NCBI GenBank assembly: GCA_034428975.1 | Contig: DAOUGY010000385.1 | Span: forward strand, 1 to 38,793 | DNA from: Anaerolineaceae bacterium | GTDB taxonomy: Bacteria; Chloroflexota; Anaerolineae; Anaerolineales; Anaerolineaceae | DNA length: 38,793 nt | Direction: 5' to 3' | Shown here: in pieces, positions 2 through 22,282 of the stretch | How the letters are laid out: each line of letters starts with the position of its first letter | How positions within the stretch are numbered: the first letter of the stretch is position 1 | Translations under genes and position numbers: made by a program | Notes under the pieces: generated by a model | What the model was told of the DNA's origin: nothing | Seen by the model: the letters and a program-made list of their open reading frames with translations, nothing else | Database searches by the model: none

Positions 2-1846
2 GAGCGCCTCAAGCGCGTCAACTGGCTGCTGGCCCAGGAGCTGGATGTGCTCCAGCTTGAAGACGAGATCCAAAGTCGCGTCCAGAATGAAGTGGACCGC
101 TCGCAGCGCGAGTTTTACCTGCGCGAGCAAATGAAAGCCATTCAGACCGAACTGGGCGAAGGGGACATCTGGGCGCGCGAGATCGCCGAGGTGAAGACCA
201 AGATTCAGGACGGCAAATTCCCGGATGAAGTGCGCGCCGCGGCGTTGAAAGAAGTGGAACGTCTGGCGCAAATGCAGCCCATGTCGCCGGAAGTGGGCAT
301 GATTCGCAGTTACCTGGACTGGGTGATCGAGTTGCCGTGGGTTGAGGCGACAGAAGACAACCTGGATGTGGCGCATGCTGCCAAGTTGCTGGAAAAATAT
401 CATTATGGGCTGGGAAAAGCGAAAGACCGCATTCTGGAATACATCGCAGTGCGCAGCCTGAAGCCCAAGAAACCACGCCAACCGATTTTATGCTTTGTCG
501 GCCCGCCCGGAACCGGAAAGACCTCGCTGGGGCGCTCGATTGCCGAAGCGCTAGGGCGCAAGTTTGTGCGCCTGTCGCTGGGGGGGGTGCGGGATGAGGC
601 GGAGATCCGCGGGCACCGCCGCACCTACATCGGCGCGCTGCCAGGGCGGATATTGCAAACTATGCGACGGGCGGGCAGCATCAACCCGTTGTTCATGCTG
701 GATGAGATTGACAAACTCGGCGCGGACTTCCGCGGTGATCCGTCATCGGCGCTGCTTGAGGTGTTGGATCCCGAACAGAATTCAGCCTTTTCAGATCATT
801 ACCTGGAGCTGTCCTACGATCTGTCGCAGGTGATGTTCATCACCACGGCCAACTCCACGGCCGCCATTCCGGCGGCGCTGTTGGACCGCATGGAAGTGCT
901 GGAGTTCCCGGGGTACATTGAAGAAGAAAAGGTGGAGATTGCGCGGCGATTCTTGATCCCGCGGCAGTTGGAAGAATGCGGCCTGGATGACAAAATGGTG
1001 CGTTTCCAAGACTCGGCGGTGCGCAAGATCATCGAGGAATACACCTACGAAGCCGGCGTGCGTAACCTGGAACGCGAAATTGGGCACATGTGCCGTAAAG
1101 CGGCTCGCCTGAAAGCCGAAGGAAAACGCCATCCGCACGCACTGACGCCCTCTACGGTGGAAAAATTCCTGGGTCCGCCGGAGTTCTTCATGTCCGAAGC
1201 GGAGCGGCAGGATGAAGAAGGCGTGGCCACGGCTGTGGCCTGGACGGAAAGCGGCGGTGAAATCATGCCGGTGGAAGTGCTGATCCTGGAGGGGAAAGGG
1301 AATCTGCAGATAACCGGGCAGATTGGCGAGGTGATGCAGGAATCGGCACAGGCGGGGCTTTCATACCTGAAAGCGCATTCCCGTGAGTTCGGCCTGGATC
1401 CGGAGATTTATGAGCGGTTGGACGTGCACATTCATATTCCAGAGGGGGCGATCCCGAAGGATGGGCCGAGCGCCGGGATTACGATTGCCACCGCGTTGAT
1501 TTCGGCATTCACAGGACGCAAGGTGAATAAAGATGTGGGCATGACCGGGGAAATCACCCTGCGCGGCAAGGTGCTGCCGGTGGGTGGTCTGCGCGAAAAA
1601 ATCCTGGCCGCGCACCGCGCTGGATTGAAGCGCGTGCTATTGCCTGAGCGCAATATGAAAGACCTGGTGGATGTACCGAAGAAAGTGCGAGTGGATTTGA
1701 CGATCATTCCGGTGACGCACATGGACGAGGTGATCAAAATCGCCCTGCACGAAAGCGCCGAAAGTCCCAAGAATTGGTCCGCTGGAAAAGAGCGGCCGGA
1801 CGATGAAGGCGACGGCGTTGAAGATGGCGAAAGCGCCAACGTATAA
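2..1846 (+). CDS. lon: ATP-dependent Lon protease (5'-truncated by window edge)
   Basis: The frame is open to the window edge (nt 2: [22 protein letters not shown]...). Walker [10 protein letters not shown] and Walker B FMLDEIDK are present. The Lon proteolytic Ser context KDGPSAGIT and the Lys context [12 protein letters not shown] are both readable. Stop TAA at 1844-1846. Confidence 0.95.
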
Positions 1847-2418: not shown

Positions 2419-2943
2419 TTAATCGCGTAAAGATGTTAGCGGAACTACCTGTTGACTTTCGCCCAACTCGTGAAAACGATTCTTGAGCACTTTGGCCACA
2501 TGCGGCGGCACCATGCTAGAGACATCGCCGTCGAGCGCGGCGATTTCACGCACCGTGGTGGAGGATAGAAAGGTGTGCTCTTCGCTGGTGATGAGAGCGA
2601 CGACTTCCACATCCGGCGCAAGACGATGGTTGGCCAGCGCCATGCGGAATTCGTACTCAAAATCAGAAAAAACGCGCAAACCGCGCACGATCACCTGGGC
2701 GTTGACCTTGCGGCAGAAATCGACCGTCAGGCCGGAATAGCCCGTGACCTGAATCTTGATATCATCTGCAAAGGCTTCTCGAACCAGATTGATGCGTGTC
2801 TCCGGGGAGAATACCAGGCTTTTGGAGGGACGGTCGTAGACGGCGATGATCAATTCGTCAAACAGGCGAGCCGCGCGACGAGCGATATCCATGTGACCGT
2901 AATGGATCGGATCAAAGGTTCCGGGAAAAATGGCGCGAACCAT
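2419..2943 (-). CDS. coaD: Phosphopantetheine adenylyltransferase
   Basis: N-terminal nucleotidyltransferase signature AIFPGTFDPIHYGHMDI, and a size (174 aa) typical of CoaD. Its ATG overlaps the recG stop by 1 nt (TGATG on the minus strand). Confidence 0.93.
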   Translation of the reverse strand: MVRAIFPGTFDPIHYGHMDIARRAARLFDELIIAVYDRPSKSLVFSPETRINLVREAFADDIKIQVTGYSGLTVDFCRKVNAQVIVRGLRVFSDFEYEFRMALANHRLAPDVEVVALITSEEHTFLSSTTVREIAALDGDVSSMVPPHVAKVLKNRFHELGESQQVVPLTSLRD

Positions 2944-5426
2944 CAGCTTACATCTCCTTTGCCCTGAAACCAGTAATGCTCCACCATTTCCGAAAGCAGT
3001 TGGTTTTCGGGATCGGAAAGGTCTGGATCGCGTTCAAAGAGGGCCTGTGCATGGTGACGGGCCTTTTCGATTAAGCGCACGTCCATGAGATTGGCAAGGC
3101 GTAACTCGGCATAACCGGATTGGCGGGTGCCAAGGAAATCACCGGGACCGCGCTGTTCCAGGTCGCGTTCCGCCAGGACGAAGCCGTCGTTGGTCTCGGC
3201 CATGGCCGACAGGCGGGCGTTTTCGACGGCATCCTCGGTCTCGGAAACGAGCAAGGCATAAGATTGTGCCTGACCGCGCCCAACACGCCCGCGGAACTGG
3301 TGCAATTGTGCCAGGCCAAAACGGTTGGCCGATTCCACCATCATAACGGTGGCGTTGGGCACGTCCACACCGACTTCGACGACGGAGGTGGAAACGAGAA
3401 TGTGATACGCGCCGTCGCGGAACTGGGACATGACCGATTCTTTTTCTTCGGGCTTCATACGGCCATGCAGCAGGCCGATGCTGTACTGCGGGAAGATGTC
3501 TTTTTGTAAACGATCGCGTTCTTCAACCGCGGCTTTGCCTTCGCCATCTCCGTCTTCGCCCTGTTCCACCAGGGGGTAAATGATAAACGCTTGATGTCCC
3601 AGTTCGATCTGGGAGCGAATGAGTGTGTAGGCGCGTTCTCGTTCGAGCGGCGCAAGAACGTGAGTTTCGATTGGCTGGCGACCGGCGGGCATTTCGTCCA
3701 TGACGGTCAGGTCGAGATCGCCGTACACGGTGAGCGCCAGAGAGCGCGGAATGGGTGTAGCGGTCATGACCAGCAGATGGGGATTTTCGCCTTTGGCTCG
3801 CAGCGCAGCGCGCTGGGCGACGCCAAAGCGGTGCTGCTCATCGATGACGGCCAGCTGCAGCGCCTGGAATGTGACGGGGTCTTCGAGCAAAGCATGCGTG
3901 CCGATGACCAATCGAATGGCGCCGGAGGCCAGACCGTCACGGATAACGCGTTTTTCGGCTTCGGGTGTGTCTCCGACCAGCAAAGCGATTTCACCGGGGG
4001 CCAACACGCCGGGTTGTTCCCCGGCACCCGTGAGCAGGCGCGAGAAGCTGCGGAAGTGCTGCTCGGCAAGAATGCTGGTGGGGGCCAGTACGGCGGATTG
4101 CGCACCGCCGGAAGCCACCACGGCTGCGGCGAGAGCAGCCACAACCGTCTTCCCCGAACCCACATCGCCTTGCAGAAGACGGTTCATCGGGCGACCGGAC
4201 GCCAGGTCGCCGCGAATTTCGGCTATGGCACGCTGCTGGGCGCCGGTGAGCACATAGGGTAACGCGTTGGTTTGCTGTTCCAGCCAGGAATCGTCCACGG
4301 TGAAACAGCGGGCGCTTTCGCTTTGCCAGGCGCGTTTTTGTCGCAGCACGCCCAATTGGAGGAGGAAGATCTCGTCAAAAGAAATGCGCGAGCGGGCTTT
4401 TTTTAGGCCATCTTGCGAATCGGGGAAGTGAATTTGCTGCAGGGCGGTAGGCAGATTGACCAGGCCAGCTTCTTGCAAAATGCGGTTGGGCATGTAATCC
4501 GAAACGCGAGGCGCCCAGAATTTGACGGTGGCATACATTTGCCGGCGCAGCCAGTTTTGCTTGACCCGCGCCGTGAGACGGTACACCGGGACAATGCGAT
4601 TGGTGTGCAGGTGATCCTGTTCCAGGAATTCCCAATCGGGATTGTTCATCATCAGGCGGCCGAGGTAGATATCCACCTTGCCGCTGACCGAAATTTGGAC
4701 CCCTTCGCGCAGTTTATTCATCAACCAGGGCTGGTTGAACCAGGTGAGGCGCAAAAAGGCGGTGCCGTCGGTGAGTGCGGCTTCGATGATGCTGCCAGAA
4801 CCGCCGCGGAAGGGGCGCATGCTGATGCTGTGGATGGCGCCGATGACCGTCAGGTCTTCGCCATATTGAACGCGGTTAATGGGTTTGAGCTGGCTGTAAT
4901 CATCGTAACGGCGGGGGAAGAAGTACAGCAAGTCTTCGAGGGTGTACAGATCCAAAGCGCTCAGAGTTTCGGCGGATTTGGGGCCAACGCCATTAATCAC
5001 CGTCAACGGCGCCTGAAGCCCGACTTTTTCGCGCTCACCCTGCGGCGGGCGGGGAGTGGATTGCGACCGGGGTCGAGCCGGGCGGTCTTCATAGCCGCGA
5101 GCGGGGTAGTCGGTCGCGGGAGGCAGATCAGGCTCGGGGCGTGGAGCGCGCGGCTGAGGCGCCGCGGGGTGCACAGGGGTGGACTCGGGCAAGTCTGCCA
5201 GCAGGGCGTGGAGATCGGTCTGGCGCTGGGACGCGTCCATCTGAGGGTAGGAAGACAGGAAGACGAGGATACGCTCAATCAGGTCGGAATCGACCTGCTC
5301 GGCGCGCGCTTCTTTTTCCCAGTTGGGAATGATTTTTTCCAACCCGCCAATGACAGCGCGGTTTTCATACCGGTTTTCCGATTCCAACTTGAGAAATTTT
5401 CTGAGTTTATCGATGGATGAGGGCAT
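2943..5426 (-). CDS. recG: ATP-dependent DNA helicase RecG with about 130-aa N-terminal extension
   Basis: Superfamily-2 helicase motifs GDVGSGKTVVA (I) and DEQHRFG (II), plus LVMTATPIPRSL and QLHQFRGRVGRG (VI). The wedge-domain region GVGPKSAETLSALDLYTLEDLLYFFPRRYDDYS begins only after a Pro/Arg-rich linker. Confidence 0.93.
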   Translation of the reverse strand: MPSSIDKLRKFLKLESENRYENRAVIGGLEKIIPNWEKEARAEQVDSDLIERILVFLSSYPQMDASQRQTDLHALLADLPESTPVHPAAPQPRAPRPEPDLPPATDYPARGYEDRPARPRSQSTPRPPQGEREKVGLQAPLTVINGVGPKSAETLSALDLYTLEDLLYFFPRRYDDYSQLKPINRVQYGEDLTVIGAIHSISMRPFRGGSGSIIEAALTDGTAFLRLTWFNQPWLMNKLREGVQISVSGKVDIYLGRLMMNNPDWEFLEQDHLHTNRIVPVYRLTARVKQNWLRRQMYATVKFWAPRVSDYMPNRILQEAGLVNLPTALQQIHFPDSQDGLKKARSRISFDEIFLLQLGVLRQKRAWQSESARCFTVDDSWLEQQTNALPYVLTGAQQRAIAEIRGDLASGRPMNRLLQGDVGSGKTVVAALAAAVVASGGAQSAVLAPTSILAEQHFRSFSRLLTGAGEQPGVLAPGEIALLVGDTPEAEKRVIRDGLASGAIRLVIGTHALLEDPVTFQALQLAVIDEQHRFGVAQRAALRAKGENPHLLVMTATPIPRSLALTVYGDLDLTVMDEMPAGRQPIETHVLAPLERERAYTLIRSQIELGHQAFIIYPLVEQGEDGDGEGKAAVEERDRLQKDIFPQYSIGLLHGRMKPEEKESVMSQFRDGAYHILVSTSVVEVGVDVPNATVMMVESANRFGLAQLHQFRGRVGRGQAQSYALLVSETEDAVENARLSAMAETNDGFVLAERDLEQRGPGDFLGTRQSGYAELRLANLMDVRLIEKARHHAQALFERDPDLSDPENQLLSEMVEHYWFQGKGDVS

Positions 5427-6373: not shown

Positions 6374-8059
6374 TTACTCGATGGACAGAATGAACTGGTA
6401 ATGGGGCTGCCCACCTTCGTGCAGCTCGATTTCGTGTTTGGGATACGTTTCGCGGATGCGATCCACGATGGAGTTGACATCCTGGCGGGAGATGTTATCG
6501 CCCGAGAAGAGGGTGATCCGTTCGCGGTCCGCAGTACCGGCCTTGTCCAGCAAGGTAAGGCAGGCTTCGGTGAGGTTGGTTGCCGAGGAGACAAGTTTGC
6601 CATTGTGCAGGGCTATGACCTGGCCTTCCTGCACGTTGACACCATTGATTTCCACAGAGCGTGTGGCCGTGGTGATTTCGCCGGTTTCAACTTCGGTGAT
6701 GGCTTCCTTCATTTCAGTGACCATCTCGTCAAATTCACCGTCCGGGTCGTAACGCAACATGGCGGAAAGCCCTTGCGGCACACTGGTGCAGGGGATGACA
6801 GCCACCTTTTTGACGGTGACCGTGGAGGCAGTTTGAGCGGCCAATACAATGTTCTTGTTGTTGGGAAGAATGATTACTTTATCGGTGGGGAGATTTTCAA
6901 AGGCCTTAAGAATCTCCTCGGTGCTGGGGTTCATCGTCTGACCACCTTCAACAACGGCAGCGACTCCCAGGCTGGCAAAGATGCGCGAGATGCCCTGACC
7001 GGGCGATACGGTGACGACAGCCACCTGGCCAGGGTCGATGGAGGAAAGCTGCAACCGGTTGCCCGTTTCGGCTTCCTTCTCTTCCATCTGGGCGATCAGG
7101 TTTTCGATGGCCACTTTGGTCACCGTGCCGAGGCGCATGGTGTAGTCAATCGGTTCGTAGCGTTTTTCGGTCGGCACGTGGATGTGCATGCGGTACATGC
7201 CATCGCCTTCGCCCACCTGAATGGAAGTGCCCATTTCCGAAAGGTCGTTGTAGAAGTTTTCGAGATTCAGCTCTTCAAATGGGCGGAAATCGACGACGAT
7301 CTCGTAATCCTGTCCGGGCTCGACGGATTCCAGGGTGTCTTCCAGGTTCATAGCCGCCAGCGGCTGAACCGTGGTGAGAGCTGTTTCAAGCGGTTGACCC
7401 TTTAGATAGCGCAGCATTCCTTCCAGGATGAAGAAAAGACCTTTGCCGCCAGAATCGACCACACCGGCGGTTTTAAGAATGGGGAGTAGCTCGGGCGTGC
7501 GCTTGACGGATTCATCGGCGCTCTGCACCATGAACTCGAGGAGCTCGATCAAATCCTGGGTTTCGGCCAGGCGCTTTTCTGCACCGGCTGCGGTGTCTTT
7601 GGCGACGGTAAGGATGGTGCCTTCCACCGGGCGGACCACGCCTTTATAGGCGGTGTTGCGGGCTTCGGCGAGGGCGTTAATCAGCACCGGGGCGGTCATG
7701 GTATCCAGGTTGTCGAGGCCGCGGGCGAAACCACGCCATAATTGGGAGAGGATGACGCCGGAATTGCCGCGGGCTCCCATCAGAGCGCCCTGGGCGATCA
7801 TGTGGGCCATTTTCCCGATATTCTTTTCGCCGGAATGGGCGATTTCAGAATAGGCGGCCTGCATGGTGAGGAGCATATTGGTGCCGGTGTCGCCATCGGG
7901 TACTGGAAAAACATTTAAAGCGTTGACCGTTTGCTGATTGGTTTTCAACCAGGTCAGCCCCGCTTCAATCAACTGTTTAAGGCCCTGGCCATCGAGAGGG
8001 GTTTGGCCTGAAAGCATATTGCTGTCCGGCTGTTTGGGAAAGAGAATATCACTGCTCAT
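6374..8059 (-). CDS. yloV: DAK2-domain fusion protein YloV
   Basis: DAK2 signature NVFPVPDGDTGTNMLLTM lies near the N-terminus, followed by a C-terminal DegV-like/uncharacterised domain. I moved the start to ATG 8059 (MSSDILF...) because the track start at 8164 would overlap asp23 by 65 nt. Confidence 0.88.
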   Translation of the reverse strand: MSSDILFPKQPDSNMLSGQTPLDGQGLKQLIEAGLTWLKTNQQTVNALNVFPVPDGDTGTNMLLTMQAAYSEIAHSGEKNIGKMAHMIAQGALMGARGNSGVILSQLWRGFARGLDNLDTMTAPVLINALAEARNTAYKGVVRPVEGTILTVAKDTAAGAEKRLAETQDLIELLEFMVQSADESVKRTPELLPILKTAGVVDSGGKGLFFILEGMLRYLKGQPLETALTTVQPLAAMNLEDTLESVEPGQDYEIVVDFRPFEELNLENFYNDLSEMGTSIQVGEGDGMYRMHIHVPTEKRYEPIDYTMRLGTVTKVAIENLIAQMEEKEAETGNRLQLSSIDPGQVAVVTVSPGQGISRIFASLGVAAVVEGGQTMNPSTEEILKAFENLPTDKVIILPNNKNIVLAAQTASTVTVKKVAVIPCTSVPQGLSAMLRYDPDGEFDEMVTEMKEAITEVETGEITTATRSVEINGVNVQEGQVIALHNGKLVSSATNLTEACLTLLDKAGTADRERITLFSGDNISRQDVNSIVDRIRETYPKHEIELHEGGQPHYQFILSIE

Positions 8060-8099
8060 AGCGCTCCAAAAAGAATAACATCTGTTCCAAAAAGCCGGA

Positions 8100-8456
8100 T
8101 CAATCGGGGTTGCTGATACGCAAACCGCGCACGTGGATATTGACCTGGGTAACAGGCAGGCCAATGGCCTTTTCGACCTGGTAACGGACCGTATCTGCGA
8201 CGCTGGCGGAAACCGATTTAATCCGCGTGCCGTATTCTACTACAATATAGAGGTCCAATTGGATGGACTTTGTGTCGTATTGCACGGTGACGCCGAGGGT
8301 GGGGTCTTTGACGAGCACCTGAGCCAGACCTTCGGCAAGGTTTTTGGCCGCCAAACCGACCACACCGTAGGATTCCAGCGCGGACTGACTGGCGATGGTG
8401 GCAATCGCACGGTGAGAGATAAAGATATCGCCCTTGGGATTAAGATTTTCGCTCAT
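8100..8456 (-). CDS. Asp23/Gls24 family envelope-stress protein (YloU-like)
   Basis: IFISHRAIATIASQSALESYGVVGL... and DLYIVVEYGTRI...V..V.YQVE are typical Asp23 family blocks. Start chosen at ATG 8456 (MSENLNPKG); the in-frame ATG at 8486 is an alternative. Confidence 0.85.
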   Translation of the reverse strand: MSENLNPKGDIFISHRAIATIASQSALESYGVVGLAAKNLAEGLAQVLVKDPTLGVTVQYDTKSIQLDLYIVVEYGTRIKSVSASVADTVRYQVEKAIGLPVTQVNIHVRGLRISNPD

Positions 8457-8489
8457 TGGGTTGGCCTCTTGAAGATTAACATCCATTCT

Positions 8490-8518
8490 TGAAAAAAGAT
8501 ACGCCTTATGGTAAAATT
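8490..8518 (+). promoter_or_regulatory. Sigma-70-like promoter for rpmB
   Basis: TTGAAA (8490-8495), a 17-nt spacer, then TAAAAT (8513-8518), about 75 nt upstream of the rpmB ATG in the divergent asp23/rpmB intergenic region. Confidence 0.45.
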
Positions 8519-8592
8519 GCTGACTGTTGTACGGATACGAGCTGTATGCATGCGGCTCTTAAGCAATCATGGTCGAGAAAGGATCCTTTGAA

Positions 8593-8775
8593 ATGGCAAA
8601 GTGTGAACAGTGTGGTAAGACGACAACCTTTGGTCACAATCGCAGCTTCTCCCTGCGTGCCACGAACCGCACCTACAAGCCCAATCTGCAGAAGGTGAGC
8701 GTGTTTGTGAATGGTCGTAAGGTGCAGAAGACATTGTGTGCCAAGTGCATTCGGAGCATGGTGAAGACTGCATAA
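8593..8775 (+). CDS. rpmB: 50S ribosomal protein L28
   Basis: MAKCEQCGKTTTFGHNRSFSLRATNRTYKPNLQKV...CAKCIRS is the canonical L28 sequence pattern. Start set at ATG 8593, preceded by aaagga. Confidence 0.92.
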   Translation: MAKCEQCGKTTTFGHNRSFSLRATNRTYKPNLQKVSVFVNGRKVQKTLCAKCIRSMVKTA

Positions 8776-8797
8776 GGGTACCTTCTAACCTGTCATC

Positions 8798-8827
8798 AAA
8801 AATCGCGGCGGCAACGCCGCGATTTTT
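8798..8827. terminator. Bidirectional intrinsic terminator between rpmB and rpe
   Basis: 13-bp stem aaaaatcgcggcg (8798-8810) / cgccgcgattttt (8815-8827) with a GCAA loop. A/T runs on both flanks allow termination in either direction. Confidence 0.7.
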
Positions 8828-8833
8828 GTTCCA

Positions 8834-9484
8834 TTATATCGAATTTCGCAGCGCGTTGATACCCGCGGCGATGCCCGCCGGGTGCTTAAAAATGGCCGTG
8901 GCGGCGACAAAAATCGATGCGCCGCGAGCGCGCGTCAGGGGGAGCGTATCGGCGGTAATGCCTCCGTCCACCTGGATGGGCACGGTCAGGTGTGCCTGGT
9001 CGATCATGGTTTTGATCTCGGCGATTTTGGCGAGCACACCGGGGATAAAGGCCTGGCCGGAATAGCCCGGATTGACCGTCATCACCAAAACCATGTCCAC
9101 TTCGGGAAGTACGGCCGAAAGCGCCGCGGCCGGTGTGCCAGGGTTGACGACAATCCCGGCTTTGACCCCTAACGCACGTATGGCCTGAAGGGTGCGGTGA
9201 ATGTTGGGGTTGTTCTCTATGTGCACACTGAGGGTGGATGCACCGGCGTGCGCAAACGCGTCGATGTAGCGTTCCGGATTCTCAATCATCAGGTGCACAT
9301 CCAGCGGCAGGGTGGTGATGCGGCGGCAGGTTTCCACCATGAACGGGCCCATGCTGATGTTGGGCACGAAGTGACCGTCCATGACATCCACGTGGATCCA
9401 GTCCACGCCGGCCAACTCAGCCTGATGGATCTGGTCCTTCAGGTTGGCAAAATCGGCGGAAAGGATGGAAGCAGAAAGAATCAT
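8834..9484 (-). CDS. rpe: Ribulose-phosphate 3-epimerase
   Basis: ILSADFANL, WIHVDVMDGHFVPNISMGP, HLMIENP and VMTVNPGYSGQAFIP are classic Rpe motifs. Confidence 0.93.
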   Translation of the reverse strand: MILSASILSADFANLKDQIHQAELAGVDWIHVDVMDGHFVPNISMGPFMVETCRRITTLPLDVHLMIENPERYIDAFAHAGASTLSVHIENNPNIHRTLQAIRALGVKAGIVVNPGTPAAALSAVLPEVDMVLVMTVNPGYSGQAFIPGVLAKIAEIKTMIDQAHLTVPIQVDGGITADTLPLTRARGASIFVAATAIFKHPAGIAAGINALRNSI

Positions 9485-9494
9485 CGCAAGCTCA

Positions 9495-10643
9495 CTACGG
9501 CACGGGTGAATTGAGGCGGAACCAAATAAGCATCCAGAACGGGATCAGACCGCCCACCGCCAACGCCGCCAGAAGGCCCAGGCCGATGCTGCCCCAATCG
9601 ATTTCGGGGAGGCTGGCGCGTGCTTTCTGCGTTGGAACCGGCGGATAAAGCGGCGGTTGTGACGGACGCGGGCCGGCTGCCGCGGGATAAGCCGGCGAGG
9701 GCATGGGGCGGCCGTTGGCGGGCGTAGGATAAACCGGCGAGGGTGCGGGGGAGGAAGATTGAATCGGGGGTTGTGTGCCGAGAATTGGCGCCGGATTGTC
9801 AAAGTAATCGGTGGCGCGGCTAAACGAAACCAGCACCCGGCCGAACTGGTCGGCTGTGCGATATCGGGCAGACGGTTCCTTGGAGAGCACTTTAAGCAGA
9901 ATTTGCTCCAAAGCGGGGGGAATCTCCGGATTGAGGCGGCGCGGAGGGGTGGGGGTGGCATCGCGGTGCAGGCGGGCCAGTTCAGAGGAATCGCTGGTGT
10001 TGAAGGGCAGCTGCCCCGTGAGCATTTCGTAGAGGATCACACCCAGGGAATAGACATCCGATGCCAGGGTGGGCGCCAGGCCGGAGGCCTGTTCGGGAGA
10101 GAAATACTGGGGTGAACCCCAGACCACATCATGCTGCTCATCGGGTTGGATGGAGGATAAGGCGCGGGCGATGCCGAAATCGGTGACCTTCAGGCGCTGA
10201 TCGGGGGTGACGAGCATGTTGTGGGGTTTGACATCGCAATGAACGATACCGGCGCGATGCGCGTAGCCAATGCCGGCGCAGGCCTGAACCATGAGCGGAA
10301 TGGCTTCTTGAAGGGGCAGGCGGCCGCGTTGTTTGAGGATGGTTTTGAGATCGGTGCCGGGAACCAGCTCCATGACGATGAAGAGGCGGCCGTTGTCGAA
10401 ACCAAAGTCGTGGACAGTGACAATGTTGGGATGCGTGAGATTGGCGGCGGCGCGAGCTTCCTGGCGAAAACGTTCGCGGAAGCCTTCATTTTGAGAATAA
10501 TCGTGGCGCAGAAGTTTGATGGCGACCGGACGTTCCAGCAGTTGGTCCTGGGCGCGGTATACAACCGCCATTCCGCCTGATCCAAGCGTTTGCTGGATGC
10601 GGTATCGATTACCCAAGATTGGTGCAGAGCCGGGGTTGTCCAT
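9495..10643 (-). CDS. Ser/Thr protein kinase, Pro-rich linker, single C-terminal TM anchor (no PASTA)
   Basis: Hanks kinase motifs are readable: G-loop LGSGGMAVVY, VAIK, catalytic loop IVHCDVKPHN (Cys where RD kinases carry Arg), DFGIAR and SPEQ. A P-rich low-complexity segment follows, then IGLGLLAALAVGGLIPFWMLIWF about 8 residues from the stop. Confidence 0.9.
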   Translation of the reverse strand: MDNPGSAPILGNRYRIQQTLGSGGMAVVYRAQDQLLERPVAIKLLRHDYSQNEGFRERFRQEARAAANLTHPNIVTVHDFGFDNGRLFIVMELVPGTDLKTILKQRGRLPLQEAIPLMVQACAGIGYAHRAGIVHCDVKPHNMLVTPDQRLKVTDFGIARALSSIQPDEQHDVVWGSPQYFSPEQASGLAPTLASDVYSLGVILYEMLTGQLPFNTSDSSELARLHRDATPTPPRRLNPEIPPALEQILLKVLSKEPSARYRTADQFGRVLVSFSRATDYFDNPAPILGTQPPIQSSSPAPSPVYPTPANGRPMPSPAYPAAAGPRPSQPPLYPPVPTQKARASLPEIDWGSIGLGLLAALAVGGLIPFWMLIWFRLNSPVP

Positions 10644-15519: not shown

Positions 15520-15649
15520 TTATTCATTAACCGCACGGTTGATCTAGAAGACTACCCAAACAATTCGATTGAGCGGGGTACAAACGGATGGATGCGGATT
15601 TGAACCACACGCAGGGACAATCCGCCGCACGCTTAAATCGCACAATCCG

Positions 15650-17560
15650 ATGGGGGTTGTGATCCTGCAGGAGGATACCCTGAGCACTCAGCAAATCAAT
15701 CAACCTTCCAATGACAGCCGGCCGGCCATGCAACAGCTTCCGCCGGGCTACGTGCTTGCCAGCCGGTATCAGGTGCAGGATGTGATTGGCGTTGGTGGCA
15801 TGGGGTCGGTTTATCGTGCACGGGATTTGCATTTTCAGAATGCCGTCAAGCTGGTGGCGGTTAAAGAGATGATCAATCAGGCGCCGGACCCGCTGGTGCG
15901 GCGAACGATTGTGCAGAACTTTGAGCGGGAAGCCAATATTCTCGTCACGCTGAGCCATCCCAGCATTCCCAAAATTTTCGATTTTTTTAACGTTGAAGAC
16001 AAATCCTACCTGGTGTTGGAGTTCATCAACGGTAAAGATCTGGAAGCGATTCTTAATTCTTCGCCGGGGTTTATTCCAGAGAATCAAGTGATTGCCTGGG
16101 CGATTGAACTGTGCGACGTACTGGCGTATTTGCATTCGCACAAGCCTGAACCGATTATCTTCCGGGATATGAAACCGTCGAATGTGATGATCAATCAACA
16201 CGGGCATGTGATGTTGATTGATTATGGGATTGCCAAGATCTTTAAGACCGGGCAAAAAGGTACGATGATCGGCACCGAAGGGTATTCGCCGCCGGAGCAA
16301 TATCGCGGCGAGGCTACACCGGTAGCCGATTTGTACTCCCTGGGGGCTACGCTGCACCATTTACTGTCCAAACGCGACCCTCGACTGGAAGCGCCTTTTT
16401 CGTTTTCTGAGCGCCCCATGCGACAAATCAACCCAGCTGTCTCACCGGAATTGGAGCTGGTCATCAACAACCTGCTGCGCTACGATCCGGAGGAACGGTA
16501 TAAGACAGCCGATGCAGTGCGTGAAGCTCTGATGGGCGTGGCCAAGAAGACCGGCGCGCTGATCAGCATTCAAAAGATGGGCGGCATCACGGGCAAGGAG
16601 CAGGGCATCAAACCGTTTTGGACGTTCCAATGTGAAGATGAAGTTCGCGGCAGCGCAACATACGACTCGGGATTCGTCTATGTCGGATCGTACGATAACA
16701 ACTTGTATGCTTTGAACGCCGCGACCGGCGAATTTTCCTGGAAATTTGCGACAGAAGGGGGCATCATTACCCGGCCGGCTGTGGAAGATGCGGTCTTGTA
16801 TTTGGGCTCCGAGGATCACAATTTTTACGCGGTTTCAGCGCGAAGCGGCAAGCAGCTGTGGACATGCACCACTGGCGGACCCATTCGCTGCTCACCGCGA
16901 ATCGCGGAAGGTCACGCCTTCATTGGATCGGACGACGGCTTCTTACGTGCCGTGAATCTTAGCTCGCAGCGCGAAACCTGGCGAGTGGATGCCAATGGGG
17001 CGGTACGGTCGATGCCGATTGTGAACAACGGGCTGATTTATTTTGGCAGCGACAACGGCGATTTCTTCTGCATCGATTTTCGCGGGCAGATTAAGTGGCA
17101 GTATCGTGCCAAACGCGCGATTTTTTCGTCTCCACTGCTCTCAGGTGGTCTGATCTTTTTCACTTCGTTGGACGGCACCTTTTGTGCCCTGGATGCGAAA
17201 TCGGGTTGGGTGATCTGGCGTTTCCGAATGGGCAAGGGGTCGATTTCATCTCCTTGCAAGGCGGATAATCTTGTTTATGCAGGTTCGGCGGACGGTTATA
17301 TCTACTGCGTGGAAGCCACCAGCGCGAAAGAGGTATGGCGTTTCCAAACCAATCATCAGGTGAGTGGATCACCGGTGGTTTATAAAGACGCGTTGTATTG
17401 TGGGAGTGCCGACGGTACGATGTATTGCCTGGACAGCAAGAATGGACGGGTGCGGTGGAAGTTCAGCACGGGGGGCGCGATCACCGCGGCGCCGGTCGTG
17501 GTCAATGATATTTTGTATTTTGGCTCGGTCGATCATATCCTGTACGCGTTGAATGTTTGA
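15650..17560 (+). CDS. Soluble Ser/Thr protein kinase fused to an 8-blade PQQ-like beta-propeller
   Basis: Kinase motifs GVGGMGSVY, VAVKEM, IIFRDMKPSN, DYG (in place of DFG) and SPPE. Eight repeats of the pattern hY.GS.D..hY.h....G...W.F then run from about 16612 to the stop. No hydrophobic segment is visible. The start is uncertain: ATG 15650, ATG 15728 (MQQLPPGY) or the track start 15569. Confidence 0.85.
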   Translation: MGVVILQEDTLSTQQINQPSNDSRPAMQQLPPGYVLASRYQVQDVIGVGGMGSVYRARDLHFQNAVKLVAVKEMINQAPDPLVRRTIVQNFEREANILVTLSHPSIPKIFDFFNVEDKSYLVLEFINGKDLEAILNSSPGFIPENQVIAWAIELCDVLAYLHSHKPEPIIFRDMKPSNVMINQHGHVMLIDYGIAKIFKTGQKGTMIGTEGYSPPEQYRGEATPVADLYSLGATLHHLLSKRDPRLEAPFSFSERPMRQINPAVSPELELVINNLLRYDPEERYKTADAVREALMGVAKKTGALISIQKMGGITGKEQGIKPFWTFQCEDEVRGSATYDSGFVYVGSYDNNLYALNAATGEFSWKFATEGGIITRPAVEDAVLYLGSEDHNFYAVSARSGKQLWTCTTGGPIRCSPRIAEGHAFIGSDDGFLRAVNLSSQRETWRVDANGAVRSMPIVNNGLIYFGSDNGDFFCIDFRGQIKWQYRAKRAIFSSPLLSGGLIFFTSLDGTFCALDAKSGWVIWRFRMGKGSISSPCKADNLVYAGSADGYIYCVEATSAKEVWRFQTNHQVSGSPVVYKDALYCGSADGTMYCLDSKNGRVRWKFSTGGAITAAPVVVNDILYFGSVDHILYALNV

Positions 17561-17584: not shown

Positions 17585-18481
17585 TTGTTCGAGTTTATTC
17601 GCAAGCTCTTAAAGAAAGAACCGCAAAAAACGGCAAAGCAGGATGCACAGACGATGCCGCTGGCTGAGGAGCAATTGGCTACGGTCACCTATCTGCCTAC
17701 GCCATATACACCGGCGCAGGTGATTGTGGGCAGCGGTCAATCGGTCGGCAAACAGCGCGACCATAACGAGGATACCCTGCTGGCATTCAACGCCATTATC
17801 GCGGATGGCGGCACCGATATGCCTTTTGGTGTATTCATCATTGCCGACGGCATGGGCGGCCATTTGCATGGAGAAGCTGCCAGCAATGCCGCGGTGCGAT
17901 CGATGGCGGATACGCTGATGCGGAAAATGTACCTGCCGGTTTTGGGCGTCACGGAGCGGGGATTTCAACAGAGCATTCAAGAGACGCTGGAAGAAGGAGT
18001 GCGAAGTGCGCACCAGGCGGTGGTGATCCGCGCGCCGGGGGGGGGCACAACGTTGACAACAGTGCTTTTGATGGGCGAACAGGTGAGTATTGCGCACGTC
18101 GGAGACAGCCGGGCTTACTTCTTGTTCCCGGATGGACGCGTGCAGGCAATCACCCAAGACCATTCGCTGGTCCGGCGACTTGTGGAGCTTGGGCAGCTGA
18201 GCGAAGCGGACGCCCTGACACACCCTCAACGCAGCGTGTTGTACCGCGCGATCGGGCAGTCGGAACCGTACCGGGCCGATATTCAGACTTTGCCGGTACC
18301 CAAACCGGGTTACTTGATGATATGCAGCGACGGGCTGTGGGGCGTCGTGCCTGAATCGGACATCTTCCGCATTGTTAAAAACAGCAGCACACCTTCGGAT
18401 GCATGCAAAGCTATGGTTGAAGCCGCCAACGAAGCCGGTGGGCCGGATAATATTTCGATCATTCTGGTGCAATTCTTGTAG
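17585..18481 (+). CDS. PP2C-family Ser/Thr phosphatase
   Basis: Metal-binding motifs NEDT, IIADGMGGHLHGEAAS, VGDSRAY, CSDGLWG and GGPDNISIILV. The TTG start at 17585 lies 5 nt after GGAGG (17575-17579). Confidence 0.9.
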   Translation: MFEFIRKLLKKEPQKTAKQDAQTMPLAEEQLATVTYLPTPYTPAQVIVGSGQSVGKQRDHNEDTLLAFNAIIADGGTDMPFGVFIIADGMGGHLHGEAASNAAVRSMADTLMRKMYLPVLGVTERGFQQSIQETLEEGVRSAHQAVVIRAPGGGTTLTTVLLMGEQVSIAHVGDSRAYFLFPDGRVQAITQDHSLVRRLVELGQLSEADALTHPQRSVLYRAIGQSEPYRADIQTLPVPKPGYLMICSDGLWGVVPESDIFRIVKNSSTPSDACKAMVEAANEAGGPDNISIILVQFL

Positions 18482-18504: not shown

Positions 18505-19983
18505 ATGGAGCAAAATCATTATCGGGTTTTGCAAATTCCGATTGACGCCACACCGGAGGAAATCCGGGCGGCTTACTTTGACGCCGCCCGGCAGTTTCAT
18601 CCGGATGTTAATCCGGACCCGGCAAGCCGAGAGATATTCCTTCAGATTCAAAAAGCGTACGATGTGCTGGTGGATCCCGTTACGCGGGTTGAGTATGACC
18701 AAAAACTGCCGGAGGGAGAAAAGATTCGGCCGGCAATTCAGGCCAATCTGGTGTACAGCCGTTCGGCGCTGCGCGCATTGAATGAGCCGCAACTGATTTA
18801 TGCGTTGTTGGATTTGGTGTGCCTAGTGGAACCGGACCCTTCGGGGCTGCCACCTGTGCATGTTTGCGTGGTGATTGACCGGTCCACCTCGATGTCGGGC
18901 GAGCGCATTGAAATGGTTAAGCATAGTGTGGCGCAATTTCTGCATAAGCTGCGTGACCAGGATATGGCTTCGATTGTGACTTTTTCGGACCGGGCGGAAA
19001 CCTTTATCCCGCCAACGTTAATCAGCGAGATTCCGGGATTAGACAGCAAACTGAGCATGATTTATATCGGTGGGGCGACCGAGATCATGCAAGGGATGCA
19101 GCTGGGCATTTCGCTGCTGCGGCAGGGTGCCGGACGCAACAGCATGATGCGCTATTTGATCCTCATTACGGATGGGCATACCTATGGCGATGAAGGCGCC
19201 TGTTACGAGTTGGCGCGAGCCGCATCCGCCGAGGGAATCTCGATCAACACGCTGGGGATCGGCAGTGAATGGAATGATGATTTTTTGGATCGCCTGGCGA
19301 GTATCGGCGGCGGCAACACATCCTATATCTCAAAAACCAAAGACCTGGTTGATTTCTTTGAAAAGCGAGCTGAATCGGCGGCGATGGTGTATGCCCGGAA
19401 TTTAAATTTTGAGTTTGCCACCGATGCGGGCATCCGGATGAATTATGCCTTTCGGATTCACCCGGAAATCAGCGAGCTGCCTATGACCAGCCCGATTCCA
19501 CTGGGAAGTCTGTATTATGGTTCGTCGATTCGATTGTTGTTCGAATTTCAGGTTGACCCATTGGATTCAGACGTGGATACGGTTCGGCTGGCTCGTGGTA
19601 AACTTGTTTTAGAGTTGGCCTCTCATCTTGGTCAGCTGCATCGCATTTTGGTGGGGATGCGCTGCCCGGTGATCGGTGAGTATGTTTTGGAAAGCCCGCC
19701 GGATGCGCTGATGGATGCACTCTCCCGCCTGACGTTGTACCGAATTCAACAAAAAGTTCGTGGGGAAGTGGAGAGCGGGGAAAACGTTAAAGCGGCGCGC
19801 CACCTGCAGCAATTGGCAACCAATTTGCTGGCGCGCGGCGAACGGGATTTGGCGCATATGATGTTGACCGAAGCCGACCATATCCGGCATCAGAATTCGT
19901 TCAGCCTGGATGGTGAGAAACGAATCAAATACGGCACGAGAGCGTTACTATTACCTCCCGAGGCAGGAAGTCCGACGCTATGA
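18505..19983 (+). CDS. J-domain / von Willebrand factor A (MIDAS) fusion protein
   Basis: N-terminal DnaJ J-domain (HYRVLQI...EIRAAYFDAARQFHPDVNPD with an intact HPD). The vWA domain has the MIDAS motif VVIDRSTSMSG (DxSxS), GGATEI and ILITDGHT. A C-terminal region of about 200 aa is unassigned. Confidence 0.85.
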   Translation: MEQNHYRVLQIPIDATPEEIRAAYFDAARQFHPDVNPDPASREIFLQIQKAYDVLVDPVTRVEYDQKLPEGEKIRPAIQANLVYSRSALRALNEPQLIYALLDLVCLVEPDPSGLPPVHVCVVIDRSTSMSGERIEMVKHSVAQFLHKLRDQDMASIVTFSDRAETFIPPTLISEIPGLDSKLSMIYIGGATEIMQGMQLGISLLRQGAGRNSMMRYLILITDGHTYGDEGACYELARAASAEGISINTLGIGSEWNDDFLDRLASIGGGNTSYISKTKDLVDFFEKRAESAAMVYARNLNFEFATDAGIRMNYAFRIHPEISELPMTSPIPLGSLYYGSSIRLLFEFQVDPLDSDVDTVRLARGKLVLELASHLGQLHRILVGMRCPVIGEYVLESPPDALMDALSRLTLYRIQQKVRGEVESGENVKAARHLQQLATNLLARGERDLAHMMLTEADHIRHQNSFSLDGEKRIKYGTRALLLPPEAGSPTL

Positions 19984-20501
19984 TCATCTGTCCCAATTGC
20001 CAAAACCAAGAGTTAGAAGGCGCGTTATTTTGCAGTGAGTGTGGTTCCAGGTTGGTGCCCATGGATCTTAAAAAAACGCAATCGTTAGGCCAGGTTGGAA
20101 ATACCGGATTAATCCCACCGCTACCGCAAGCCGGCGCATTCTTCGAAGCGCAGGAAGGCGCCCAGGTTGGGGAGCTGGAAATTTCTGTCCATTTAATGGA
20201 CAGCGGACAGGTGTTGAATCTAGCGGGCCGGACGGAGTTCACGCTGGGTAGGGTGGCGGAAGGGCAACCGATCTTGCCGGATGTGGATCTGTCTCCATAT
20301 GAGGCCTACGGCCAGGGCGTTTCACGGCTTCATGCCGCTTTGAAAATCATTGGCGGACGTCTGGCGGTGACCGACCTGGGTTCTTCGAATGGAACGCGCG
20401 TAAATGGGCAGAAAATAGTCCCTCATGTGGATTACCCCATCAATCATGGCGATATCGTGACGCTCGGGAAACTTCGTTTGCAGGTATTGCTGGGAAAATA
20501 G
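19980..20501 (+). CDS. Zinc-ribbon / FHA-domain protein
   Basis: N-terminal CPNC-x12-CSEC zinc ribbon. The C-terminal FHA domain shows FTLGR, GVSRLHAAL, DLGSSNGTRVNG and GDIVTLG. The start overlaps the upstream stop (ATGA). Confidence 0.87.
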   Translation: MIICPNCQNQELEGALFCSECGSRLVPMDLKKTQSLGQVGNTGLIPPLPQAGAFFEAQEGAQVGELEISVHLMDSGQVLNLAGRTEFTLGRVAEGQPILPDVDLSPYEAYGQGVSRLHAALKIIGGRLAVTDLGSSNGTRVNGQKIVPHVDYPINHGDIVTLGKLRLQVLLGK

Positions 20502-20509
20502 GTGAATGA

Positions 20510-20749
20510 ATGTACACGGTATTGATCCATCTTCAAAATGAAGATCCCGTATTGTGTGAGGTGGAAGAACTTCCAACTCCCACGGATTTGATGATCACAG
20601 TCAAAAACCCTCGAAAGAAAGATGGAAAAGATTTGCATTATCTGGAACCAAATGTGACGACCGTGATGTGGCCGATATCGCGGATCACATTCATTGAAAT
20701 CATCCCTGGCGCTGAAGAAGAAGACATTATCAGCTTTGTGCGGGAGTGA
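20510..20749 (+). CDS. 79-aa hypothetical protein (operon-embedded, unknown family)
   Basis: The ORF is wedged exactly between the FHA gene (8-nt gap, aggtga SD) and the regulator (GTGA overlap). It has no motif I recognise. My hand count gives about 43% GC. Confidence 0.55.
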   Translation: MYTVLIHLQNEDPVLCEVEELPTPTDLMITVKNPRKKDGKDLHYLEPNVTTVMWPISRITFIEIIPGAEEEDIISFVRE

Positions 20750-21480
20750 GTCCTATGCCGGATGAGACATTCAAGAATCGATTGATTCTCGTAGTGGACG
20801 ATGAAGAACGCATGGCGCGGTTTATCCGCCTGAATCTGGAGCACGATGGGTTCCAGGTGATTGAAGCGTATCGCGGCGGCAAAGCGATTCAGATGATTCG
20901 CGATTCGATGCCTGACCTGGTGATCTTGGACGTGATGATGCCGGATATGGATGGTTTTGAAGTGCTGCGCACGGTGCGAGAAATCAGCAGCCTCCCGGTG
21001 ATTATGTTGACCGCCAAGGGCGAGGAAGATGACCGGGTGCGCGGATTGGAATTGGGCGCCGATGATTATGTGACCAAACCCTTCAGCCCGCGGGAGTTAA
21101 TCAGCCGGGTGCGGGCTGTTCTACGCCGAACCGAGACGGCTTCGCCCTCGACCCATGGGATCATTGAGGTGGATGAGCATTTGCACATTGATTTTGACCG
21201 GCGCGAGGTGAAATTGGACGGCAAGCCCATCAAGCTGCGGCCGACAGAATACCGGTTGCTGTATCAACTGGTGCAGAATGCGGGCTGGGTGCTGACGTAT
21301 GATCAAATTCTGTCGAAAGTATGGGGGTATGAATATCGTGACGAGCCGCATTACGTGCGATTGTACGTGAATTATCTGCGCCAGAAGCTCGAAGAAGACC
21401 CGGCCAACCCCCGCTATATTCTGACAGAACGGGGTGTTGGTTACCGGTTTGTGGATTTTCACCGCAAGAAAGACAATTAA
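20746..21480 (+). CDS. OmpR/PhoB-family response regulator (no cognate histidine kinase adjacent)
   Basis: The receiver domain has DDEE, the phospho-acceptor context LVILDVMMPDMDG, LTAKGE and KPF. The winged-helix output shows LRPTEYRLLYQL and GVGYRF. The start is GTG 20746 or ATG 20755. Confidence 0.9.
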   Translation: MSPMPDETFKNRLILVVDDEERMARFIRLNLEHDGFQVIEAYRGGKAIQMIRDSMPDLVILDVMMPDMDGFEVLRTVREISSLPVIMLTAKGEEDDRVRGLELGADDYVTKPFSPRELISRVRAVLRRTETASPSTHGIIEVDEHLHIDFDRREVKLDGKPIKLRPTEYRLLYQLVQNAGWVLTYDQILSKVWGYEYRDEPHYVRLYVNYLRQKLEEDPANPRYILTERGVGYRFVDFHRKKDN

Positions 21481-22244: not shown

Positions 22245-22282
22245 TCGCGGGAGGGTAGTTCAAAACCCTCCCGCGATTTTTT
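22245..22282. terminator. Intrinsic terminator between convergent trxA and murA
   Basis: 11-bp stem tcgcgggaggg (22245-22255) / ccctcccgcga (22266-22276) followed by tttttt, which overlaps the murA stop codon. Confidence 0.65.

Follow-up and report, generated by a model that had tools for sequence, protein, structure and literature searches.

The J-vWA protein, encoded within a six-gene phospho-signalling operon of an Anaerolineaceae bacterium, may wire the recruitment of DnaK to a phosphorylation-controlled complex resembling archaeal ArnAB. Drawn from analogy with ArnA and ArnB, this reading has about an even chance of being correct. The gene (18505..19983, + strand) fuses an N-terminal J-domain to an ArnB-type body of vWA domain, beta-sandwich and helical bundle. 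Its open reading frame starts with ATG, downstream of an SD-like GGGGTAGGG, and yields 492 amino acids, exactly as initially annotated. It lies in the window, the whole 38.8-kb stretch of DNA that was analysed. A literature search found no description of the J+vWA fusion or of the six-gene operon, and the main text of a survey of J-domain protein (JDP) architectures does not contain the fusion (PMC10410713).

The J-domain

The J-domain occupies residues 1-73 (18505..18723, +), as identified by Pfam, the family profile and the AF2 model. DnaJ (PF00226) matches residues 4-65 with 65.2 bits (E 5.7e-18; cut-off 27.8), and with the J-vWA family profile, T. thermophilus DnaJ2 reaches 82 bits. AF2 predicts four helices (residues 5-9, 17-31, 39-56 and 58-67). 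The HPD tripeptide (H32-P33-D34, 18598..18606) is embedded in QFHPDVNPD (residues 30-38) and is intact in all 80 orthologs, which upholds the initial assignment of an intact HPD at the N-terminus. Among 117 J-bearing representatives, it is kept in 104 and lost in approximately 13 (~11%). Hsp70 activation is the sole function known for the HPD. The mean pairwise identity of the J-domain is 0.49 versus 0.47 for the vWA domain. No Hsp70 gene was found in the 38.8-kb window, which encodes Lon, RecG, FakA/DegV, GlnA, MurA and an ABC transporter, among others.

Helix II is not basic, unlike that of DnaJ. Its net charge is 0 to +1 in 62 of the 80 orthologs, compared with +4 in Escherichia coli DnaJ. 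The DnaJ residues K26, R27, R36, K48 and K51 are replaced in J-vWA orthologs by F, E/D, A/V, L/I and Q, respectively, the hydrophobic F25 standing in place of K26 in 65 of 80 sequences. J-vWA lacks the basic helix II surface which DnaJ uses for DnaK binding. The J/Hsp70 interface residues outside the HPD vary among working pairs and co-evolve; because of this variability among functional JDPs, a basic helix II is not strictly defining (PMC7289447).

Neither Pfam nor NCBIfam yielded a match to a G/F region, a CXXCXGXG zinc finger or DnaJ_C in J-vWA, in agreement with the absence of G/F region and zinc finger stated initially. DnaJ equivalogs of NCBIfam match residues 1-68 only and remain far under their cut-offs. 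Class C JDPs, e.g. auxilin, HscB, DjlA and CbpA, combine a J-domain with a dedicated binding module. J-vWA shares with them an HPD-containing J-domain attached to a binding module without G/F region or zinc finger, as well as the logic of Hsp70 recruitment to one specific complex. It differs in the partner module, an ArnB-type vWA switch, and in the non-basic helix II. In the preferred reading, held with the same even confidence, J-vWA belongs to the class-C (type III) J-domain proteins, is soluble and cytoplasmic and would stimulate Hsp70.

The ArnB-type body

Residues ~75-485 are modelled as the tripartite fold of ArnB, in which a beta-sandwich hosts an inserted vWA domain and a helical bundle comes after it (AF2; pLDDT 86.1, pTM 0.82 for the protein). 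Two N-terminal beta-strands (residues 78-106, 18736..18822, +; AF2 strands 78-84 and 96-106) complete the split beta-sandwich, as in ArnB and vWA2. The six-stranded rest of the sandwich comprises residues 295-390 (19387..19674, +), recognised by AF2 and by Foldseek against 4fx5, 8s05_A and 5a8j. The C-terminal four-helix bundle (residues 400-481, 19702..19947, +; AF2 helices 400-423, 427-443, 447-463 and 470-481) is the counterpart of the RHB/ArnB_C domain of ArnB. The initial annotation had recognised no motif in the C-terminal ~200 residues, which the AF2 model and Foldseek now assign to the beta-sandwich and the helical bundle.

The vWA domain (residues 118-291, 18856..19377, +) is matched by Pfam VWA (PF00092) at residues 120-285 with 72.6 bits (E 6.1e-20). 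Its motifs are DRSTSMS (125-131), GGATE (189-193) and TDGHT (222-226). They supply the MIDAS residues D125-x-S127-x-S129 (18877..18891, +), T192 (19078..19080) and D223 (19171..19173). All five are intact in 80 of 80 orthologs, and the MIDAS is complete, as had been proposed.

The top four Foldseek matches in the PDB, 4fx5, 8s05_A/B and 5a8j, span nearly the whole target. The best is 4FX5 (E 1.2e-26, TM 0.74), the vWA protein Caci_2163 of Catenulispora acidiphila, followed by ArnB (8s05_A; E 2.7e-25, TM of 0.74 relative to the target over 422 columns); the vWA2 structure 5a8j matches the model with an E-value of 5e-21. Caci_2163 has the same tripartite fold without a J-domain. It is a structural-genomics entry without described function or partners and has been noted as ArnB-like (PMC6509490). 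Sequence similarity to ArnB is confined to the vWA domain and the first sandwich strands in comparisons of the family profile with the PDB. The alignment with 8s05_A ends at residue 311 and does not align T478 with the ArnB phospho-sites. Pfam has no match in residues 293-492 even at E<=10, ArnB_C (IPR040929) included. Since sequence similarity to ArnB and ArnA is limited or weak, the relationship to ArnAB rests on fold and architecture.

The most conserved element of J-vWA is the C-terminal motif F-S-x-x-G-x-K-x-I-K-Y-G-T478-R-x-L481 (19900..19947, +). Its mean pairwise identity is 0.72, compared with 0.30-0.49 in other parts of the protein, and it is present in 121 of 150 representatives, J-less ones included. 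Conserved Ser/Thr columns of the bundle are T410, T439, S467 and T478. Position 478 (19936..19938, +) is Thr in 80 of 80 orthologs and is followed by Leu at +3, as in a pT-x-x-L site. Judged by these sequence features, T478 is the prime candidate for a phospho-acceptor and FHA-binding site in J-vWA.

The operon and its partner genes

J-vWA is encoded in one translationally coupled operon of six genes. The order kinase, PP2C, J-vWA, FHA protein, small ORF and response regulator is shared by all 80 of the Anaerolineae loci examined, and the gaps following the PP2C gene measure about 10, -4, 14 and 4 nt. The first gene (15569..17560, +) encodes a Ser/Thr kinase with a C-terminal PQQ/beta-propeller. 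Pfam matches Pkinase at residues 67-319 (E 1.8e-42) and PQQ_2/Beta-prop_ACSF4 at 350-650. Orthologs align from residue ~30 onwards, so the true start probably lies further downstream, near M28. A PP2C-type Ser/Thr phosphatase follows (17585..18481, +; Pfam PP2C/PP2C_2), separated from J-vWA by a median of 10 nt in 78 loci.

The gene downstream of J-vWA (19980..20501, +) encodes a Zn-ribbon and FHA protein of ArnA-like architecture (Pfam Zn_Ribbon_1 at residues 4-25, FHA at 101-163). Its start codon and the J-vWA stop codon overlap in the sequence ATGA (median -4 nt across loci). The cysteines C4/C7/C18/C21 and the pThr-binding residues GR...SRxH...NGT are kept in 80 orthologs, while the linker is variable. 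Zn-ribbon, linker and FHA domain occur in the same order as in ArnA, and the C-x2-C-x10-C-x2-C spacing is identical to that of the ArnA cysteines C21, C24, C35 and C38 (PMC12852372). The sequence match to ArnA is weak and covers the FHA domain only (E 0.03).

The fifth gene (20510..20749, +) encodes a 79-aa protein, predicted by AF2 (pLDDT 85.4) as an Sm/LSm-like barrel with an acidic disordered C-terminal tail ending in ...FVRE. All its top Foldseek matches are Sm/LSm proteins, at weak E-values of only 0.007-0.06, and no sequence match was obtained in Pfam or PDB. The ORF is present in 78 of 80 loci and also in J-less cassettes. An OmpR-family response regulator (20746..21480, +; Pfam Response_reg and Trans_reg_C), starting at GTG 20746 or ATG 20755, abuts the small ORF and lies within a few nt of it in 77 loci. 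Its mean pairwise identity of 0.78 is the highest in the cassette, and the gene occurs in J-less cassettes elsewhere, too. The initial annotation had named the kinase and the phosphatase; the ArnA-like Zn-ribbon-FHA, 79-aa Sm-like and response regulator genes had been missed. No transmembrane segment was predicted in any of the six proteins, and J-vWA has no signal peptide. The locus is syntenic with glnA, murA and trx in 80 genomes across the class.

Distribution and J-less relatives

The same cassette exists in other genomic neighbourhoods, in some cases without the J-domain. Approximately 19 full-length relatives are J-less. One protein, P0224, is a natural fusion of the kinase with the body. 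A neighbour-joining tree of the shared body, calculated from BLOSUM distances without support values, places the J-less forms in scattered positions requiring at least 14 changes; the tree being crude, it is concluded only that absence of the J-domain is not restricted to one clade. In the HPD-less locus L088, neither the kinase gene nor the small ORF is present. Since the J-domain or its HPD is missing from related cassettes, the phospho-switch forms the core and the J-domain an accessory to it. The loss of the HPD in about one in nine J-bearing representatives, together with the J-less relatives, indicates that Hsp70 coupling is not essential to the cassette. A link of J-vWA to the neighbouring kinase and phosphatase, suggested in the initial annotation, is strongly supported by the gene order, which is invariant in 80 loci and whose junctions are tight or overlap, by the P0224 fusion and by the ArnB precedent.

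Relation to known systems

ArnA and ArnB are among the few structurally understood prokaryotic Ser/Thr phospho-switches. ArnB has a split sandwich with an inserted vWA domain, a C-terminal bundle and an intact MIDAS, and acts as a switch controlled by kinase and phosphatase (PMC6509490, PMC12852372). J-vWA resembles the Sulfolobus acidocaldarius proteins (PDB 8S05, 5A8J, 5A8I) in the vWA domain within a split eight-stranded beta-sandwich, the C-terminal bundle with its conserved threonines and the MIDAS. ArnAB is controlled by a Hanks-type kinase together with a Ser/Thr phosphatase; enzymes of both kinds are encoded in the present operon and may exert the same control. ArnA and ArnB are crenarchaeal, whereas J-vWA is bacterial (Anaerolineae) and carries an extra N-terminal J-domain. 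The present operon provides in cis the kinase, a PP2C instead of a PP2A phosphatase, the Sm-like protein and the OmpR-type regulator.

Deinococcus radiodurans DRA0331-DRA0334 is a bacterial operon that likewise encodes a vWA protein, an STPK, a stand-alone FHA protein and a PP2C (bioRxiv 10.64898/2026.01.23.701218). The likeness is one of gene content. Gene order differs, the kinase is a transmembrane protein and the PP2C is fused to KI-FHA; a J-domain, an Sm-like gene and a response regulator are not reported. The TerY-P triad, as summarised in PMC11090510, consists of a TerY-like vWA protein, a PP2C and an STK-ZnR and was hypothesised to form a phosphorylation-dependent switch (Anantharaman et al., 2012). 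Like the present cassette, it unites in one operon a Ser/Thr kinase and a PP2C with a vWA protein whose MIDAS is perfect. In that summary, the Zn-ribbon resides on the kinase, whereas here it is part of the FHA protein and the kinase carries the PQQ propeller; FHA, J-domain and response regulator are not among the components described there. TerY-P is placed there in defence and tellurite contexts, in contrast to the present cassette, which belongs to the core genome and has a vWA protein without PADLOC match. The core of Sec23/Sec24 in the COPII coat shows a similar arrangement of Zn-finger, vWA ('trunk'), beta-sandwich and helical domain. Sec24 and Sec23 chains are among the fold matches of J-vWA at a much lower TM (0.28-0.36 of target); they serve a eukaryotic vesicle-coat function and possess an additional gelsolin domain. 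The depositors of ArnAB term it an ortholog of the Sec23/Sec24 core.

Proposed mechanism and alternatives

If the cassette works like ArnA/ArnB of Sulfolobus, the FHA protein may be loosely tethered through its Zn-ribbon to the beta-sandwich and helical bundle of J-vWA. The kinase would phosphorylate threonines in the C-terminal bundle, T478 in K-x-I-K-Y-G-T-R-x-L being the foremost candidate. The FHA domain would next clamp on and alter the conformation of the complex, and PP2C would catalyze the reset. The J-domain could recruit DnaK/Hsp70 for remodelling or disassembly of the complex or of a MIDAS-held partner. This would connect the phospho-switch with proteostasis and, further downstream, with the co-transcribed regulator.

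The initial annotation favoured an adaptor logic, and a related reading regards J-vWA primarily as a DnaK adaptor. A specific client, perhaps in phosphorylated form, would be captured by the MIDAS and passed by the J-domain to DnaK for folding or unfolding, with kinase and phosphatase acting on the client instead of J-vWA. The invariance of both HPD and MIDAS in the main family, the co-operonic kinase and phosphatase and the resemblance to class C JDPs speak for it; a J-domain combined with a specific binding module, without G/F region or zinc finger, makes adaptor logic as such reasonable. Against it, the cassette of related lineages functions without J-domain or HPD, conservation peaks in the C-terminal Thr motif and not in the J or MIDAS region, and ArnB, the nearest solved relative, is itself kinase substrate and FHA target (PMC12852372). 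The reading is considered unlikely, and the dispensable or decayed J-domain of related cassettes argues for a phospho-switch and not Hsp70 delivery as the core function. A J-domain reduced to a structural 'J-like' module, which has lost its Hsp70 function and serves as a docking surface, for example by packing on the ArnB-like body or binding the kinase, is rather improbable. Such a role would agree with the near-neutral helix II and its F25, with the repeated loss of the J-domain and, in some, of the HPD, and with the pTM of the whole protein, which suggests a fixed orientation of J-domain and body in the model. It is opposed by the HPD retained in every ortholog and in most representatives, a tripeptide known only for Hsp70 activation, and by the family profile score against a bona fide DnaJ; interface residues other than the HPD are widely variable in working J/Hsp70 pairs as well (PMC7289447).

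Two further readings concern the cassette as a defence system and the protein as an extracytoplasmic factor. Triads of vWA, PP2C and STK (TerY-P) and TerY-P-like modules are tied to defence (PMC11090510), and the kinase domain matches PADLOC kinase families. An anti-phage or conflict system of this kind was rejected as very improbable: the PADLOC similarity of kinase and PP2C is generic, and J-vWA and the FHA protein match no PADLOC model. Moreover, a nuclease or other effector is absent, a highly conserved OmpR-type regulator closes the cassette, and synteny with the housekeeping genes glnA, murA and trx extends across the class without a variable island. Many homologs are labelled 'Ca-activated chloride channel homolog' by JGI, and the weak match of NCBIfam hCaCC is confined to the vWA domain. 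A role as extracytoplasmic adhesin or channel-accessory vWA protein is nevertheless hardly credible for a protein that has neither signal peptide nor transmembrane segment, begins with a cytosolic module, the J-domain, and is encoded together with exclusively soluble signalling proteins.

The preferred reading of a J-domain-equipped, ArnAB-like switch may be extended to a chaperone-gated phospho-switch, a speculative and doubtful proposal. DnaK recruited in cis would drive or reset an order-to-disorder transition of the bundle, exposing buried threonines such as T478 to kinase and FHA. The acidic tail of the Sm-like protein (...EEE-x-IISFVRE) would be a released MIDAS ligand, and the released protein or complex would control the OmpR-type regulator. 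If true, this would be the first Hsp70 hard-wired into a bacterial Hanks-kinase pathway and would hint at the way in which archaeal ArnAB produces its output.

Significance

The operon suggests a link between Ser/Thr phospho-signalling and Hsp70 that has not been described. The system is compact and reconstitutable, all its partners being named by the genome, and it offers a concrete hypothesis, Hsp70 remodelling as part of the switch, with the J-domain present in most Anaerolineae. At least several hundred species are covered by this family, and the finding corrects its misleading database labels, which currently include 'DnaJ-class chaperone with C-terminal Zn finger' besides the chloride channel label. 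The Anaerolineae are filamentous and abound in digesters, sediments and wastewater. A regulator of this kind, conserved throughout the class, likely has a basic physiological decision under its control.

J-domain and ArnB-type body

The J-vWA protein, a J-domain joined to a vWA domain, is encoded by an ATG-started ORF at 18505..19983 on the forward strand (492 aa) with an SD-like GGGGTAGGG upstream. The ORF lies exactly where the initial annotation placed it, and the HPD stretch and MIDAS elements quoted there were all found in the protein. In Pfam, residues 4-65 match DnaJ (65.2 bits) and residues 120-285 match VWA (72.6 bits). Each of the 80 Anaerolineae orthologs keeps HPD and all five MIDAS residues intact. 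A G/F region, a DnaJ Zn-finger and DnaJ_C were not detected in domain searches, Pfam among them, which bears out the earlier statement on the first two.

AlphaFold2, run with 30 family members, gives a confident model (pLDDT 86.1, pTM 0.82). It comprises the J-domain helices, two beta-strands (residues 78-106), the vWA domain (118-291), six further strands (295-390) and four helices (400-481). The best PDB match in Foldseek is 4FX5, a Catenulispora vWA protein (E 1e-26). The other three of the top four are chains A and B of ArnB in 8S05 (E 3e-25, TM 0.74 of target) and the ArnB paralog vWA2 (5A8J, E 5e-21); ITIH1, pilus adhesins and Sec23/24 rank lower. ArnB is the vWA partner of the FHA protein ArnA in motility repression of Sulfolobus acidocaldarius. 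In ArnB and vWA2, a vWA domain with intact MIDAS is inserted into an eight-stranded sandwich, two strands of which come from the N-terminus, and a helical bundle forms the C-terminus (PMC6509490, PMC12852372). This description agrees with the J-vWA layout point by point. The C-terminal ~200 residues, for which no recognisable motif had been claimed, are instead modelled as sandwich strands and helices of the ArnB-type fold. Alignment of the family profile with ArnB covers only the vWA domain and the first sandwich strands (E 4e-16), and ArnB_C was not detected in J-vWA by Pfam. The predicted structure places the relationship at the fold level.

The last helix, F-S-x-x-G-x-K-x-I-K-Y-G-T478-R-x-L, is the most conserved stretch of J-vWA (identity 0.72). 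T478 is threonine, never serine, in 80 of 80 orthologs, and L stands at +3; FHA domains usually prefer pT-x-x-L/I. The motif is kept in relatives lacking the J-domain and in a kinase fusion. T478 is located where the ordered region ends, a position resembling that of the late, buried ArnB sites T371-T375, which lie close to the point where the ordered chain stops at its C-terminus (PMC12852372). Conservation and context suggest T478 as a candidate phospho-site.

Partner genes and operon structure

The genes upstream of J-vWA encode, by Pfam, a PP2C phosphatase and a Ser/Thr kinase that carries a PQQ beta-propeller. For the kinase ORF, the TTG start as listed (15569..15650, forward strand) is probably too far 5′; M28 (about 15650) is likelier because orthologs align only from residue ~30-38. 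Downstream, a ZnR-FHA gene overlaps the J-vWA stop codon (ATGA). Its product carries a C-x2-C-x10-C-x2-C ribbon, a variable proline-rich linker and an FHA domain. ArnA is likewise a Zn-ribbon and FHA protein, and its ribbon cysteines C21/C24/C35/C38 have identical spacing (PMC12852372). The four cysteines and the pThr-binding residues G90-R91, S114-R115-x-H117 and N137-G-T are conserved in the 80 orthologs.

A small ORF of 79 aa (20510..20749, forward strand), not noticed in the initial annotation and just below an 80-aa ORF threshold, starts 8 nt past the FHA stop and abuts the start of an OmpR-type regulator. It was found in 78 of 80 Anaerolineae loci (50-60% identity), is labelled 'hypothetical protein' in databases, and has no sequence match in Pfam or PDB. 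The confident model (pLDDT 85.4) shows a five-stranded barrel and a disordered acidic tail, which is invariant and ends in ...FVRE. Fold matches are Sm/LSm proteins only, with weak E-values (0.007-0.06); the product is predicted to be an Sm/LSm-like barrel. Of the cassette genes, the regulator is the best conserved (mean pairwise identity 0.78).

Gene order, traced by tblastn of the window proteins, is identical across the 80 loci on every contig of sufficient length. The median spacing is 10 nt between PP2C and J-vWA and -4 nt between J-vWA and FHA. No strong terminator-like hairpin occurs inside the six-gene unit, and none of its six proteins has a TM segment. The strongest such hairpin of the region (22245..22276, forward strand; 12-bp stem, 9 G-C pairs, T-run) sits between convergent thioredoxin and murA genes. 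Two Anaerolineales loci, L050 (~8010-9209) and L076 (~8006-9193), carry two additional genes, for a Ser/Thr kinase and a further FHA protein, between ZnR-FHA and the regulator. A shorter Ser/Thr kinase (9495..10643, reverse strand; 382 aa, kinase domain only) adjoins ribulose-phosphate 3-epimerase, a pairing also present upstream in locus L084. The left end of the window, with Lon protease (AAA+ and S16 domains; 47..1846, forward) and RecG helicase (2943..5426, reverse), is chromosomal housekeeping context.

Distribution and variation of the J-domain

The protein is not an isolated case: relatives are encoded in at least 589 species-level genomes, of which the best 80 are all Anaerolineae. The best 120 of 3,526 database matches share the ~490-aa J and VWA layout and, where labelled, come from Anaerolineae/Chloroflexota. 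An exhaustive search with the body alone (residues 75-492) gave 293 representatives at E<=1e-30. Among the best 150 of these, 102 carry a J-domain with HPD, 13-14 a J-like domain with HPD replaced (NAV, KTT, DLD, NPE, SPQ and others), and about 19 lack the J-domain although full-length; the others are shorter fragments. J-less genes begin right after, or overlap, the PP2C gene and are therefore not mis-called starts. Their cassettes (L082, L083, L084, L085/L086, L087) keep the order kinase, PP2C, vWA, FHA, small ORF, regulator, always running on into the ~80-aa ORF and the regulator at a spacing of a few nucleotides. Recurrence in differing neighbourhoods (L083, L085, L087) indicates that the unity of the cassette is not just class-wide synteny. 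The HPD-less cassette L088 also lacks kinase and small ORF. J-less forms are scattered in a crude NJ tree, and all labelled J-less or divergent members are still Anaerolineae/Chloroflexota.

Other fusions occur. P0224 (L081, 5001-7064) joins an N-terminal Ser/Thr kinase to the same body, a Rosetta-stone link of body to kinase; a small stand-alone receiver gene precedes it. P0252/P0406 (L089) bear a C-terminal GGDEF on the ArnB-like body. P0251 combines an HPD-less J, the body and a C-terminal FGE-sulfatase domain; with its duplicated segment, it could be an artefact of assembly.

In the main family, J-domain and vWA domain are conserved to a similar degree (0.49 vs 0.47). Helix II is near-neutral, and several DnaJ contact residues show conserved replacements (K26 by F, R27 by E/D, K48 by L/I, K51 by Q). 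Such positions at the J-domain/Hsp70 interface are variable and co-evolve with the partner chaperone, HPD being the invariant catalytic element (PMC7289447).

Proposed function

A J-vWA protein acting purely as client-delivery adaptor would fit its HPD, but the J-less and HPD-less cassettes count against this reading, as does the fact that ArnB is itself the kinase substrate. A non-functional J-like domain, compatible with the altered helix II, is hard to square with an HPD intact in 80 of 80 orthologs. The cassette is unlikely to be a defence system, since PADLOC models match neither the vWA nor the FHA protein and the locus lies in conserved synteny with housekeeping genes; an extracytoplasmic vWA is also unlikely, signal peptide and TM segment both being absent. 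These points leave all four less well supported than a phospho-switch.

Related modules are already known, namely ArnAB, the vWA-STPK-FHA-PP2C operon of D. radiodurans (bioRxiv 10.64898/2026.01.23.701218) and the TerY-P triads (PMC11090510). Among the papers searched, none describes a J-domain/ArnB-like fusion or the six-gene operon. Domain composition, fold, conservation, operon structure and the occurrence of J-less and HPD-less variants are established by the analysis; the mechanism is a proposal. By analogy with ArnAB, the kinase would phosphorylate the C-terminal bundle of J-vWA, the Zn-ribbon-tethered FHA protein would clamp on it, and PP2C would reset the switch. Known J-domain biology suggests that this J-domain, with its HPD, would recruit DnaK to the complex; the 38.8 kb window contains no Hsp70/DnaK gene. 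The adaptor idea of the initial annotation was partly right but put the weight of the system in the wrong place: the phospho-switch would be the core and Hsp70 recruitment an accessory layer. J-vWA would thus be a J-protein of class C, its 'client module' being a phospho-switch in its own right, with the Sm-like protein and the OmpR-type regulator, both co-transcribed, as likely output.
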